DNA from: Acidimicrobiia bacterium
Lineage (GTDB): Bacteria > Actinomycetota > Acidimicrobiia > Acidimicrobiales > Bin134
NCBI GenBank assembly: GCA_009843865.1
Contig: VYCQ01000023.1
Span: forward strand, 64,320-128,319
Direction of reading: 5' to 3'
DNA length: 64,000 nt
Below the pieces are notes generated by a model. It saw nothing but the letters and a program-made list of their open reading frames with translations, searched no databases and was not told where the DNA came from. Shown here in pieces: positions 41,634 through 49,228 of the stretch. Position 1 is the first letter of the stretch. Every line of letters starts with the position of its first letter. A program made the translations under genes and the position numbers.

Positions 41634-42638
41634 ATGGGCATCGCCCGCTTTGTTGTATACCCGTTTGCGTTGTTGGTCGTTTGTGCGGCGGGATGTGGTT
41701 CTGCTGAATCTTCTTCTGTGGCTCAAGATTCTGTTGAGATGGCGCTCCCCGCACTTTCGGCACCGCTTACTGGTGTGCCTGGCTTTACCGGTGTCTCCCA
41801 AATCAGCGCCGCGACAGCAGGGTCGCTTGGTAAAGAGCTAGCTAAAACCTCTGCACGGGTATCATCAACTCCTACTCCTAATGTTGTTGAGCTACAACGA
41901 TGGGCCCGCAACAGCGCTTTTTATGCGTTTGGCGATGATGTTTTGGGCTGGGATGAACAGGGTTGGCCGTTGGTGCGCAAGATCCCTGTTGATCACGAAG
42001 GATTGGAAGAGCTGCGCTATCGGCATGGTCACCAAGATGGCAGCATTCCAGACAATGTCGACACCCGCTTATGGCTGCAAGAGTGCCTCAGCGACCGTTT
42101 CAGTGCCGTCGCGGGGTCTTCCGAAGCTGTTCAAGGCACCTTTGCAGCTCAAGGTCTGTATCTTTGCCTTGGCGCTTTGGTTCATTTAGAGCATCTCCGA
42201 GCTAGATATTGGTGGAGTGAAGCGGGTTTGGCTTGTGTTGGCAGCGCAGCTATCAACTATGCCTTTCATGGGGAGGATGCTCCAAGACCTCTAGCAGTCT
42301 GCCCTTCTCAAGGATACAACCCCACCGCGCCACGCCCTTCGGGTTGGCTGCGCCAACAATGCCTTCGCGTTGTTGGCGATCATCTCAATCCTGCTTATCC
42401 CAGCGGCTCTGCTGATGGAGCCTTGGGGCAAGTGCTGCCATCTTGTTGGCAACCGCTGTTAGACACAGCGGAAGCTCATGCGAAAAACAACGCCGAGTTA
42501 GGGTTACCCGACAGTCCGCATGACTGCTTTCATGCGGTGCTCGGTTATGTGTGGGCACGTCAATCTGGATTGGATAGCCGAGCACCCAATGATCTCTATG
42601 TGGGATGTGGATATAGCGCTTCTGAGGCCTTGCGATGA
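41634..42638 (+). CDS. Cys-rich putative lipoprotein, function unknown (first gene of Tad-like operon)
   Basis: Signal peptide plus lipobox (LLVVCAAGC), followed by eight further Cys by my count. RBS-like AGAGAGGG lies upstream. The stop overlaps the next ATG (ATGA). Confidence 0.55.
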   Translation: MGIARFVVYPFALLVVCAAGCGSAESSSVAQDSVEMALPALSAPLTGVPGFTGVSQISAATAGSLGKELAKTSARVSSTPTPNVVELQRWARNSAFYAFGDDVLGWDEQGWPLVRKIPVDHEGLEELRYRHGHQDGSIPDNVDTRLWLQECLSDRFSAVAGSSEAVQGTFAAQGLYLCLGALVHLEHLRARYWWSEAGLACVGSAAINYAFHGEDAPRPLAVCPSQGYNPTAPRPSGWLRQQCLRVVGDHLNPAYPSGSADGALGQVLPSCWQPLLDTAEAHAKNNAELGLPDSPHDCFHAVLGYVWARQSGLDSRAPNDLYVGCGYSASEALR

Positions 42639-43933
42639 GCCCCAAATCGCGCTCAGATGCAACACGTCTGCTGATTGCCATGTTGCTGATGGTGTTTTTG
42701 TTTGTGGGGTTCGCTGCAATCAACCCTGAAGTGCGCGAGGTGTTTGCACATGAGCAGCATGAGTGGATTTCAGTTAGTGGCGTTGGCGCGACATGTCCTG
42801 TGGACGTGAGCAATTGCCGGGTTACTTGGACACATGTGAACTTTTGGACTCACTACGAAAGAGTGATCCCTAGTGTTTGTGCCTTGACAACCATTGGCAA
42901 TTGTCAACCGGTTGTCATAACGCGCAATGCAACAAGTTCTTGTCGTAATACCAGTAATTGTGGACATGGCCCTCACAGCAGCACGCCTAGAGTGACTGGT
43001 CCGGGCACTTGGACTGTTTGGAAAGGGCATACAGATGTTGATCATAAATGGAGTGGCCGGAGACATCAGAAGGTAGCTCACCAGCATCTTTCCCCAACTG
43101 AGCCCAATAATCCACCCCCCACAGCACTCCCCACACCTCAACCTGAGCCATCGGTAAATCCTCAACCTCATTGCATGACCGATGGCATCCCCAACAATTG
43201 TCCTAGGCAGAAAAAAGATGATGATAAAACCAACAAGCCAAACCCCAAGGTTGCTTGTAGCACCTCTTGGAGCAGCGCAACAGATAATCAGTTACGCAGC
43301 GCGTTGCGCTGGGAATCAATCGTACCCTATCCGAGTGGTTTTGCTACCCCGCATCATCTTGAGGTGCCCGGCGGACGTTGGTTTTTGACCGCAGCATCAA
43401 GCCCGCTTAGCGCAGCACGGCATTGGGTGGCGCTCAAATCTGGTGCAAACCTGAACGTGTCGGAGTCCTCTGCTAGTGGGTGTTTGTGGACTGCCACTCA
43501 TGTTGGGGTATTTCTGCGCGAGCTATTGGCCCATGACAGCGCTGATCTTGCTGTTCTGGTTTCCCCCGGTAATACGGCAGCAGCCACGCAGGCGCGTCAA
43601 GCAGCTTCGTTGTGGCAGAACCTGAGTTCGCAACGCAAGCAATGGTACACCGATGCCTTTACGAGAAACGACCCGGCCACTGTTTGGTGTTCTTCTGCTG
43701 ATCTCCCTACATGGACCAGCCCGCTTAATAAAGTGCTCTCGTTGTCCAGCACATGGAGTGCCAAACATGACCATTGTCGTTGGGTAATACCCCGTCAGGG
43801 TTTTTGGCAGTGGCAGCTTGTTATTAGGTACACCTCCAATCAGGGTGATTCCTATACCCATGTGGTGGCTGAGGATTTGTCATGGTTTCGTGAGCCCGAC
43901 GGATATCTCACCCAGCAGGTGACGTTGTGGTAG
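42635..43933 (+). CDS. membrane-anchored Cys/Trp/His-rich extracytoplasmic protein, function unknown
   Basis: N-terminal TM (LLIAMLLMVFLFVGFAAI) and four C-x5-8-N-C loops. A Pro-rich linker (PNNPPPTALPTPQPEPSVNPQP) precedes a Trp-rich C-terminal domain. Coupled on both sides. Confidence 0.55.
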   Translation: MSPKSRSDATRLLIAMLLMVFLFVGFAAINPEVREVFAHEQHEWISVSGVGATCPVDVSNCRVTWTHVNFWTHYERVIPSVCALTTIGNCQPVVITRNATSSCRNTSNCGHGPHSSTPRVTGPGTWTVWKGHTDVDHKWSGRRHQKVAHQHLSPTEPNNPPPTALPTPQPEPSVNPQPHCMTDGIPNNCPRQKKDDDKTNKPNPKVACSTSWSSATDNQLRSALRWESIVPYPSGFATPHHLEVPGGRWFLTAASSPLSAARHWVALKSGANLNVSESSASGCLWTATHVGVFLRELLAHDSADLAVLVSPGNTAAATQARQAASLWQNLSSQRKQWYTDAFTRNDPATVWCSSADLPTWTSPLNKVLSLSSTWSAKHDHCRWVIPRQGFWQWQLVIRYTSNQGDSYTHVVAEDLSWFREPDGYLTQQVTLW

Positions 43934-44565
43934 CTGAGACCAGCAAGGCTCTTAGATCTGTGACTGCTTGGCCTGTGAGCTTGCGCTGGCGTCTGCTGGC
44001 AGTATTGCTGGTGTTGGCAGCAACTACCGCGGCCATTTTTTTGCTGTCATTAGAACGAAATGGGCAAGCAGAAATTTTAGTAGTTGCTACCACTGAGCGC
44101 TGGCTGCAAGACCATCCGGTAGGCGAGCACACGTTGATTCCAGTGCCTGCTGGCTTGGCTTCATTGTTTGTACAGCCTGACGATTTAAAGAACAAGGCTG
44201 CTTCTGTAGATATACCAGAAGGCAGCCTTGTGGCAGCACAAATGCTGCGTTCTCACCGCAGCAGTGACAATGAGCGTGCTACTGCTTTGATGGCTTTTGT
44301 TGCAAGTGCCAGCATGTGGCCTAGCCCTGGCCCAGCCGCAGGTGACCCAGCCGTGTTTGCATCATCTCCGGGGGGCTGCGCTACCGCTATTCAAAGGCTT
44401 GTAGCAGTTGAGGATGAAGGGGCTGACATGAAGGTCACCTTAGAGGTTACGCCTGAGTTGGCCGAGGTGTTGGCCGATCGCGAGTGGTGGATATGGCAAT
44501 CCCCTCCCAGTGGTTGGCCTCAATGCGAAATCGTTTTAACTGACAGCGGCGAGGGTGAGCAGTAG
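43927..44565 (+). CDS. SAF-domain / CpaB(RcpC)-like pilus assembly protein (putative)
   Basis: N-terminal TM (WRLLAVLLVLAATTAAIFLL), then ILVVATTERWLQDHPVGEHTLIPVPAGL...IPEGSLVAAQML, which resembles the CpaB SAF region. Sits directly before the ATPase. Confidence 0.5.
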   Translation: MVAETSKALRSVTAWPVSLRWRLLAVLLVLAATTAAIFLLSLERNGQAEILVVATTERWLQDHPVGEHTLIPVPAGLASLFVQPDDLKNKAASVDIPEGSLVAAQMLRSHRSSDNERATALMAFVASASMWPSPGPAAGDPAVFASSPGGCATAIQRLVAVEDEGADMKVTLEVTPELAEVLADREWWIWQSPPSGWPQCEIVLTDSGEGEQ

Positions 44566-48436: not shown

Positions 48437-48853
48437 ATGAGCGATGCCATTGCTTTTTTGTTGATCTTGCCAGCAATGATGTTAGCGGTGGTGGTGCTAG
48501 ATGCAGCAGGCACACTAGGTGCAGCTCGACACAGCAGCGTAACCTTTGCCGAAATTGCCGTTCACCAAGCAGCCGATACGCTAAGGCGTTCTGATCCCTT
48601 TACAGGTTCAGCTTCGGCTAGGTCTCGTTGGGATGAAGTTTCTGCCACTGTAAAACAAGCTGGATGGGGTGCCACTGCTGGGGTATGCGATCAAACCGCA
48701 GTTGATTTTCAGGTGGCTGTGGTGCCTCAAACAACAAGCAACGCTAACCACGAGGTGGCCGTGGTGGTGCGATGTCCTGTGACTTTAGGGCCGCTTTGGG
48801 CAACCGATCATGTGGTGGCCGCTAGCATTGCGCCTCTTCAGCCATCCCCTTAG
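48437..48853 (+). CDS. TadE-like protein
   Basis: The N-terminus AIAFLLILPAMMLAVVVLDAAG matches the TadE N-terminal pattern (xEFALVLPxLLLLxxGxxDFG-like). Confidence 0.58.
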   Translation: MSDAIAFLLILPAMMLAVVVLDAAGTLGAARHSSVTFAEIAVHQAADTLRRSDPFTGSASARSRWDEVSATVKQAGWGATAGVCDQTAVDFQVAVVPQTTSNANHEVAVVVRCPVTLGPLWATDHVVAASIAPLQPSP

Positions 48854-48856
48854 CTG

Positions 48857-49228
48857 ATGCATACAGCGATATTGTTGTTGGCATTGGGCATGGCTGTGGC
48901 GGTTGCTGCCGGTTCGGTGAGCGATCACGGTGAGCTACTTACTACACGCAACTTGGCAGCTCACCGAGCTGAGCGAGCTGCTCAAACTTTTGTACAAGGA
49001 TGTGCCAGCGGTGGTTGTCAAAGCGGTGATGTGTCGCAAACTACCTCGCAAAACATTCGCCTGACTGGCTGCATAAGACAGTCAGGCGATTCTACAGCGC
49101 TTATGGTAGAGGCTAGCTTGGCTTGGAGTCCGCAGGTGTTTATGGGGTTAACTCCTGCTAAGGCCAGTACCGTGGTTGATTTGGGAGGTTTCGCCGCTTC
49201 GGCTGAGGCTGTTTTGCCTCAATGCTGA
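48857..49228 (+). CDS. TadE/Rv3654c-like protein
   Basis: Hydrophobic N-terminus, then AAHRAERAAQTF...GC...NIRLTGC...LMVEASL. Resembles the helicase/secretion-neighbourhood TadE-like family (from memory). Confidence 0.52.
   Translation: MHTAILLLALGMAVAVAAGSVSDHGELLTTRNLAAHRAERAAQTFVQGCASGGCQSGDVSQTTSQNIRLTGCIRQSGDSTALMVEASLAWSPQVFMGLTPAKASTVVDLGGFAASAEAVLPQC

Follow-up and report, generated by a model that had tools for sequence, protein, structure and literature searches.

A chromosomal Tad-like gene cluster with leaderless pilin-like proteins in a sponge-associated lineage of Acidimicrobiales

A cluster of ten plus-strand genes, designated g1 to g10, occupies positions 41634-49228 of a 64,000-nt stretch of contig VYCQ01000023.1 (positions 64,320 to 128,319) from an Acidimicrobiia bacterium (assembly GCA_009843865.1); the whole stretch is referred to below as the window. 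The cluster probably encodes a Tad/type IVc-like filament system, located on the chromosome of a monoderm of the Acidimicrobiales that is associated with sponges, and its divergence probably makes a prepilin peptidase unnecessary. Both filament formation and independence from the peptidase are what we infer from the predicted gene products. We class the locus as a variant of the Tad system because its ATPase and its two platform proteins are of the Tad type and the small protein at the Flp position lacks the features of a Flp prepilin.

For comparison, we read the tad loci of Brachybacterium kimchii pCBA3104-01 and of a Streptomyces albidoflavus NBC_01621 plasmid, as annotated in RefSeq. The gene order of these plasmid loci is SAF, TadZ-like, CpaF, TadB, TadC, a 64-69 aa Flp, and three TadE/TadG-like proteins, and a profile scan matched their products to the SAF, T2SSF, and TadE Pfam models. 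The window locus shows the same order without the TadZ-like gene, which on the plasmids is a separate gene between SAF and CpaF encoding a degenerate ParA/TadZ-like protein of 261-300 aa; in addition, its ATPase carries an N-terminal domain (N-domain), and g1 and g2 lie upstream. The plasmid loci are located near 'conjugal transfer protein' genes and a gene for a DUF87/FtsK-like ATPase. An earlier reading of the window, made from its letters alone (the sequence-only reading), had proposed a divergent Tad/Flp-like subclass with non-canonical membership. Our analysis supports a Tad-type locus that is real and under selection; however, its overall gene order is that of annotated actinobacterial plasmid tad loci. 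The membership is indeed unusual in that leaders are absent and g2 is conserved, but the conserved N-domain of the ATPase had been missed.

Translation starts of the four small pilin-like proteins

According to reviews of type IV filaments, a dedicated peptidase has to process the class III signal peptide before assembly can take place, the last residue of the leader is always Gly or Ala (PMC10191384), and the conserved core consists of the pilin, the peptidase, the ATPase, and the platform protein (PMC10191384; PMC6668835). In the g7 to g10 families, translation starts directly at the hydrophobic helix. The g7 product begins with MQSAIVQ at the initiator codon, a GGAGGA Shine-Dalgarno sequence lies 7 nt upstream of the ATG, and the window contains no in-frame start codon upstream of it. 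These data agree with the sequence-only reading, which had described a small pilin-like open reading frame (ORF) with the best ribosome-binding site (RBS) of the locus followed by three TadE-like ORFs; the latter encode 123-138 aa. The family alignment places the start of g8 at 48010 rather than 48004.

To characterize the starts, we made a profile for each of the four small families, used it to find model position 1 in all loci, and counted non-redundant homologues. Position 1 was a start codon in every homologue of all four families (Table 1). Codon use for Met, Val, or Leu at an internal position would be unrestricted, so that this alternation among start codons only indicates the true initiation site. 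All g7 homologues begin with M-[Q/D/E]-S-[A/P]-[I/V] directly after a GGAG-type sequence, an RBS preceding position 1 in 75/76 of them, and the small families have in common the N-terminal motif M-[DEQS]-x-[AP]-[IVL]. The residues encoded upstream of the starts are not conserved and never place Gly or Ala at -1. A phmmer search of 1.84 billion representative proteins returned only 11 relatives of g7, nine of which, with lengths of 62-77 aa, give alignments that begin at residue 1 or 2 in query and match alike; the family is thus rare, and independent gene calls agree on its start.

These results bear on whether the cluster is simply an ordinary Tad locus whose leaders were missed through mis-called starts and whose TadV and TadZ are encoded elsewhere. 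Such an arrangement has precedents: the TadV gene commonly lies outside the tad locus, and some systems have no TadZ (PMC6916266; PMC6668835). However, not only window g7 but also 42/76, 74/78, 55/77, and 46/76 of the g7, g8, g9, and g10 homologues, respectively, have no upstream in-frame start. Together with the restriction of position 1 to start codons behind an RBS, the lack of an encoded -1 Gly or Ala, and the independent gene calls, this largely refutes the explanation, which we consider very improbable.

On the genes called from ~4 kb before to ~8 kb after the window (~77 kb), no ParA/CpaE-type or Peptidase_A24 Pfam family was detected, and neither was found within 10 kb of the ATPase gene in two relatives (L086 and L087). 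A cruder motif and profile scan of 1.75 Mb, comprising the window and 87 loci, detected neither a deviant Walker A motif nor a credible A24 motif, and the plasmid TadZ-like profile had no match there; in about 80 related loci, neither gene lay up to 10 kb to either side of that for the ATPase. The sequence-only reading had found neither a ParA/CpaE-like gene nor an aspartyl prepilin peptidase, and this was borne out over the ~77 kb surrounding the locus; tadZ and tadV do not lie just outside the window, the 67-aa ORF matches no Flp model, and the leading ORFs match no known family. Micrococcus luteus lacks tadZ, and Bifidobacterium breve encodes tadV away from its locus (PMC6916266). Neither a missing tadZ nor a missing in-locus tadV is unusual in monoderms, and these absences matter only in combination with the leaderless pilins.

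Profile comparisons by hhalign related the small proteins to TadE. The g9 profile aligned with the plasmid TadE proteins at E 3.8e-5 over 92 columns, and the initiator Met of g9 fell on the -1 Gly of TadE, which suggests that the g7-g10 proteins begin where processed pilins begin. The g8 profile aligned with the TadE set at E 3e-5 over only 24 columns, and the g10 alignment with TadE was weak (E 5e-3); none of g8, g9, and g10 matched Pfam TadE directly. The positions of g7 and g10 are those of Flp and of the third TadE/TadG-like gene, respectively, in the plasmid loci. The plasmid Flp and TadE proteins carry classical leaders ending in Gly, such as ...SAGAG/EVVEY and ...ERG/AASTEVV (the slash marking the end of the leader), whereas the window proteins have none. 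A Flp prepilin has a leader ending in Gly followed by xxxxEY, and the Flp of Mycobacterium tuberculosis has a conserved Gly before the cleavage site and a Glu-Tyr pair (PMC9531140); g7 and all 76 homologues have neither the -1 Gly nor Glu5-Tyr6, and g7 matched no Flp or DUF4244 model of Pfam or NCBIfam. The Flp motif had been reported as missing from the locus, and this part of the sequence-only reading holds; it captured only half of the departure, as all four pilin-like proteins are without any leader.

The C-terminal parts of all four families contain invariant Cys residues in even numbers, which fits an extracytoplasmic, disulfide-bonded domain and an N-in/C-out topology; g7-g10 are accordingly predicted to adopt this topology. 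Among PDB sequences, the g7 family profile best matched the archaeal type IV pilin Aap (8q30), at the N-terminal helix of its mature form (residues 4-37 on residues 4-37), with a non-significant E of 1.7.

Three further features of g7 were recorded. A potential signal peptidase I site (VYA/Q) in the window protein is not conserved in distant homologues, and cleavage at this site was rejected. The C-terminal motif of g7 (Cys, x-A-x-G-G-x-W, Cys) occurs as 3-4 tandem repeats in two unrelated larger proteins (P0178 and P0184), one a secreted protein of 274 aa and the other a protein of 720 aa whose middle part resembles a ClpP-type protease by eye, raising the possibility that the small C-terminal domain of g7 is a mobile binding module. 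Directly upstream of the g7 RBS, at 47735-47759, a 12-nt direct repeat, AATATCTCTTTG, is present in two copies 1 base apart and may be a regulatory element.

The secretion ATPase, the platform proteins, and the upstream genes

By sequence comparison, g4 belongs to the TadA/CpaF clade and supplies the ATPase expected of a Tad/type IVc system. The four boxes listed in the sequence-only reading (GGGKTT, IEDTPEL, VIGETRG, and TLHS) were all located in g4, which matched Pfam T2SSE at 3.3e-15. The best NCBIfam model was the TadA-family TIGR03819 (1e-38), which outranked the TrbB, VirB11, FlaI, and ComGA models; its score of 133 bits is far below the cut-off of 373 bits. Against PDB sequences, the ATPase family profile matched CpaF at 1e-30 (residues 176-484), VirB11 at 1e-10, and FlaI at 2e-8, and the closest solved structures for the core are those of CpaF (8rkd and 9e24). 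A tblastn search of PLSDB with g4 returned only matches of ~30% identity, which were confined to the ATPase core.

The architecture of g4 comprises a receiver/flavodoxin-like domain (residues 1-130), two long helices (133-181), and the ATPase core (~176-484). Conservation of residues 1-184 extends to every full-length homologue down to 50% identity, with an N-domain coverage of 97%, and a domain of this kind was found in none of the CpaFs compared. The AlphaFold2 model of the N-domain, with a predicted local distance difference test score (pLDDT) of 84.7, shows a six-stranded alpha/beta domain followed by the two long helices. Foldseek returned flavodoxin-like proteins, response-regulator receivers, and ParA/MinD ATPases at E ~1e-3 and a TM-score of ~0.5, which are generic matches, and the best PDB sequence match was a response-regulator receiver (E 0.14). 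Strand 1 ends in an invariant Asp7 and strand 4 in a nearly invariant Thr79; the N-domain has no P-loop, and its alignment contains no invariant acceptor Asp or Lys. We rejected the interpretation of the N-domain as a fused TadZ, as its hhalign comparison with the plasmid TadZ-like proteins was negative and the fold matches are generic.

The two platform proteins, g5 and g6, are both diverged to below curated cut-offs, and by sequence they form the pair of single-domain platform paralogues that is a hallmark of type IVc systems (PMC6916266). The g6 product matched Pfam T2SSF at 2.8e-4, a score below gathering although the whole domain was covered. No direct Pfam match was obtained for g5; its profile aligned by hhalign with a bona fide plasmid TadB, itself a T2SSF match at 2.5e-13, at E 2.4e-5 over 156 columns. 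g5 and g6 aligned with each other as paralogues (E 5e-4 over 192 columns). No alignment between g6 and the plasmid TadC was found by hhalign, and g6 is called TadC-like because of its direct T2SSF match and its paralogy with g5.

Almost all related loci of sufficient extent carry g3 as the gene immediately preceding that of the ATPase. Although g3 had no direct Pfam SAF or RcpC match, three independent signals, each weak, all point to an RcpC/CpaB-type protein. Its profile had RcpC (9gzr) as the sole PDB match (E 0.18, individually non-significant), the top Foldseek match of its AlphaFold2 model was 9gzr_A (E 0.14), and hhalign against the SAF-domain proteins of the plasmid loci gave E 1e-4 over 104 columns at 57% probability. 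The SAF/CpaB-like assignment made from the sequence alone is thus weakly but concordantly supported.

The sequence-only reading had described the two leading genes as encoding unrecognisable exported proteins, and neither g1 nor g2 matched a Pfam, NCBIfam, or PDB family (for g2, 20 members were scanned against Pfam); however, only g2 is conserved. The N-terminal half of g2 is variable and includes a Pro-rich linker, and its C-terminal domain of ~220 aa is conserved, with 4 conserved Cys. Most chromosomal-type loci encode this domain 5' of g3, with 22-30% identity from one genus to another, and the 38 homologues of g2 are all unnamed and without Pfam domains. The mature part of g1 contains 8 Cys and 9 Trp. 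Its homologues occur only in close Poriferisocius-type loci (38-51% identity), and g1 is a lineage-specific accessory protein. A Cys/Trp-rich lipoprotein occupies the same position in Aldehydirespirator loci; hhalign aligned only its lipobox with that of g1, so that homology is not supported, and the two were set down as positional analogues.

Distribution, paralogous copies, and chromosomal setting

We retrieved 80 related loci with the ATPase alignment; the motifs are specific to the g4 family, hence this is no census. All 80 are from metagenome-assembled genomes of Acidimicrobiia (a few labelled only 'bacterium'), and several bear the names of genera of sponge symbionts (Ca. Poriferisocius, Ca. 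Aldehydirespirator, and Ca. Poriferisodalis); Ca. Poriferisocius and Ca. Aldehydirespirator are placed in separate families of Acidimicrobiales. The gene-neighbourhood comparison suggested in the sequence-only reading showed that g3-g7 are syntenic in essentially all of the loci that reach that far, down to 50% ATPase identity. Detection of g8-g10 by tblastn succeeded in fewer loci, though in most, and family profiles detected them in 82 of the loci searched. The ratio of nonsynonymous to synonymous substitution rates (dN/dS) was 0.07-0.37 for g2 (~0.2), g3, and g5-g10 where dS was unsaturated, a range that argues against pseudogenes; the values are rough, as dS was saturated in many pairs.

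A second type of copy, with 61% ATPase identity, was found in L041, L042, L046, L082, and L087 (e.g., L087:1-15285), and several genomes carry both types. This copy, which we call the integrative and conjugative element (ICE) type, lacks g1 and g2, has an extra gene for an 82-aa pilin-like protein and a 144-aa gene at its end, and is located directly downstream of genes for a TraG/TrwB-type coupling protein, an ArdC homologue, and an SNF2/DEAD-type helicase of 1800-2000 aa. These surroundings are a conjugative-element context. Two scans of metagenome contigs, one with the single sequence and one with an alignment, detected no relatives of the coupling protein of the paralogue. In L045 (OZ242356.1), L075, and L078, the first query residue matched in the ATPase lies at 122-132; the pilins of L045 are of the ICE type but no coupling protein, ArdC, or helicase is encoded upstream, and this locus may be a degraded or rearranged copy.

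The ICE-borne paralogue, and the loss in L045 of the N-terminal part of the ATPase match and of the transfer genes, would be expected if the window locus were what is left of an integrated conjugative element, in decay and now without function. We give this explanation very little credence, since the ten ORFs are intact and coupled, the locus is syntenic in at least two families of Acidimicrobiales, and the dN/dS values are low (see above).

The same paralogue raises the possibility of a non-filamentous machine, in which a Tad-derived ATPase and platform drive the translocation of DNA or protein (conjugation, competence, or secretion of g1 and g2) and the small proteins form a short pseudopilus or membrane-anchored subunits. 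Consistent with this, the paralogue lies between the genes for the coupling protein, ArdC, and the giant helicase on one side and further unknown genes on the other; NCBI names the TIGR03819 family as associated with conjugal transfer; Glu5 and the leader, hallmarks of polymerising pilins, are absent; and the exported g1 and g2 are co-transcribed with the machine. However, no coupling protein, VirB4-type ATPase, relaxase, or other transfer gene was found in the window and its flanks (~77 kb), and the set and order of components are those of pilus-forming tad loci. The pseudopili of type II secretion and Com systems also use leader-bearing pilins, so that leaderless starts are no better explained by such a machine, which we regard as unlikely.

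The window locus is flanked on both sides by ordinary chromosomal genes: leucine biosynthesis genes, gltX, murT/gatD, scpAB, uvrC, gap-pgk-tpi, secG, and katG on one side, and a NUDIX gene, thyX, tatAC, and Pup-proteasome genes on the other. The only known RNA families in the window are two tRNA genes. All ten ORFs of the cluster are intact and show translational coupling; the five start/stop overlaps noted in the sequence-only reading were all confirmed by the ORF coordinates, and a 120-nt gap separates g6 from g7. The start of g1 given in that reading (41634) is most likely correct, whereas gene callers chose 41583. The promoter-like site upstream of g1 is a suggestion rather than evidence, as the region contains fewer such sites than shuffled controls.

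At 40410-41483, where the GC content falls to 0.49, one gene encodes a lysozyme-like protein of the SLT_3 type (Pfam 5.5e-5, short of the gathering score) and a second encodes a calcineurin-like phosphoesterase. A cell-wall hydrolase adjoining a pilus locus could be functionally linked to it; however, it is not conserved with the locus, and both genes were rejected as members of the system, being present only in the window and in its nearest relative (L006). A highly charged protein of 412 aa without a family match is encoded at 49253-50491, 24 nt after g10, and occurs downstream of the locus only in Poriferisocius-type genomes, sometimes ~1 kb further off. The thyX (Thy1) product, encoded on the minus strand at 52108-53799, has 544 aa, about double what is typical of ThyX, and may thus have arisen by duplication or fusion.

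Table 1. Genes, junctions, and promoter-like site of the cluster (window positions), and start codons at model position 1 of the four small families
Feature	Position	Strand	Description
promoter-like site	41516..41544	+	TTGATT-17-TATACT in the AT-rich gap 5' of g1; consensus scan only
g1	41634..42638	+	putative lipoprotein, signal ...LLVVCAAG/C, 334 aa
g1/g2 junction	42635-42638	+	ATGA
g2	42635..43933	+	exported protein, 432 aa
g2/g3 junction	43927-43933	+	GTGGTAG, 7-nt overlap
g3	43927..44565	+	bitopic membrane protein, 212 aa; divergent RcpC/CpaB-like (SAF-type), two invariant Cys
g3/g4 junction	44563-44567	+	TAGTG
g4	44565..46133	+	CpaF/TadA-clade secretion ATPase, 522 aa
g4/g5 junction	46130-46133	+	ATGA
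g5	46130..46945	+	TadB-like platform protein, 271 aa
g5/g6 junction	46942-46945	+	ATGA
g6	46942..47652	+	TadC-like platform protein, 236 aa
g7	47773..47976	+	leaderless Flp-sized pilin-like protein, 67 aa, MQSAIVQMILIVV...LCKAVGGTW...C
g8	48010..48411	+	leaderless TadE-sized pilin-like protein, 133 aa, 4 invariant Cys
g9	48437..48853	+	leaderless TadE-like protein, 138 aa, MSDAIAFLLILP...
g10	48857..49228	+	leaderless pilin-like protein, 123 aa, 4 invariant Cys
g7 family			position 1 a start codon in 76/76 (68 ATG, 8 GTG)
g8 family			position 1 a start codon in 78/78 (62 ATG, 16 GTG)
g9 family			position 1 a start codon in 77/77 (56 ATG, 20 GTG, 1 TTG)
g10 family			position 1 a start codon in 76/76 (46 ATG, 26 GTG, 4 TTG)

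Relation to known systems and proposed function

The Rv3654c-Rv3660c locus of M. tuberculosis is likewise monoderm and actinobacterial and has the order TadA-TadB-TadC-Flp-TadE. Loci of this type (TIGR03819, 'helicase/secretion neighbourhood') share a large helicase with the neighbourhood of the ICE-type paralogue. In contrast to them, the window has no CpaE/Ssd-like TadZ and g4 scores far below the family cut-off; the companion families of TIGR03819 (CpaE-like, DUF4244 pilin, and TIGR03816 TadE-like) gave no matches, and the locus is not assigned to that type. The type IVc pili of B. breve and M. luteus are also minimal monoderm systems, with a pilin, 2-3 minor pilins, two platform paralogues, and one ATPase; however, their prepilins carry the Flp motif and are processed by a peptidase, which is counted in the minimal machinery (PMC6916266). 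Roles reported for monoderm Tad systems are host colonisation and DNA uptake (PMC6916266), and by analogy these would fit a symbiont.

The Cpa system of Caulobacter crescentus provides the closest structures for the g4 core (CpaF) and, with other diderm Tad systems, the sole structural match for g3 (RcpC 9gzr). It is a diderm system with a secretin, TadD, RcpB, TadZ/CpaE, and TadV/CpaA, and the N-terminus of its CpaF consists of a disordered region and a helical bundle, in contrast to the receiver-like alpha/beta domain in g4. The conjugative IncI1 plasmid R64 encodes, beside its transfer machinery, a thin pilus that is a type IV filament and stabilises mating pairs. This pilus belongs to the type IVb clade, is found in a diderm host, and consists of prepilins processed by a plasmid-encoded peptidase. 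We regard it as a functional analogue for the ICE-borne paralogue.

If the window locus encodes a filament, its assembly may proceed as follows. The small proteins would insert in an N-in/C-out orientation, and the leaderless subunits would be competent for assembly without cleavage. The ATPase hexamer, acting on the TadB/TadC platform, would draw subunits out of the membrane and into a filament whose assembly is primed by the three minor pilin-like proteins, and g3 would form an extracytoplasmic collar. The receiver-like N-domain might supply the regulatory or localisation role held by TadZ elsewhere, and g2, joined by g1 in the window lineage, may act as wall-side accessory or adhesive proteins. 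The likely role is cell-cell or cell-host attachment and/or DNA exchange; given an ICE-borne paralogue that adjoins a coupling protein gene, the exchange of DNA or the formation of mating pairs is a serious candidate beside host attachment. A further proposal, which we make only tentatively, is that the leaderless major and minor pilins dispense with the prepilin peptidase and that the ICE-borne paralogue is the mating pilus or transfer apparatus of an Actinomycetota element.

Several points weigh against a peptidase-independent filament. The proteins lack the Glu5 that is conserved in type IV pilins; position 2 or 3 is occupied by Asp or Glu in many members (MDSPV, MESPI, METPI, MSDAI, and MDEAV), but not in window g7, g8, and g10. 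g7 and g10 are assigned as pilins by their size, their position, and the helix at their N-terminus. A minority of loci do have an in-frame start further upstream, and its use in the ICE-type copies could conceivably give a short, basic leader with Thr as the last residue. An A24 peptidase may be encoded elsewhere in the genome, beyond the ~77 kb surveyed. The g3 model is of low confidence (pLDDT 66), so that, with each RcpC match non-significant alone, the identity of g3 is weakly established, and a functional replacement of TadZ by the N-domain, which did not align with the plasmid TadZ-like proteins, is speculative. All of these assignments derive from sequence comparison and structure prediction.

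Literature searches for leaderless or peptidase-independent pilins and for Tad loci with a coupling protein in Actinomycetota returned nothing relevant, which is not proof that none has been published. TXSScan/MacSyFinder and PilFind probably miss such loci, being keyed on the leader or on profiles that do not match. If our interpretation is correct, naturally leaderless pilins under selection in at least two families would show that the peptidase step is dispensable, and the locus would offer a minimal monoderm system in which the roles of the leader, Glu5, and the peptidase in membrane extraction and polymerisation could be tested. The link to a coupling protein in the paralogues bears on conjugation in Actinomycetota outside the TraB paradigm. 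Finally, the apparent restriction of these loci to sponge-associated Acidimicrobiales suggests a role in the attachment of the symbiont or in gene exchange within the host.

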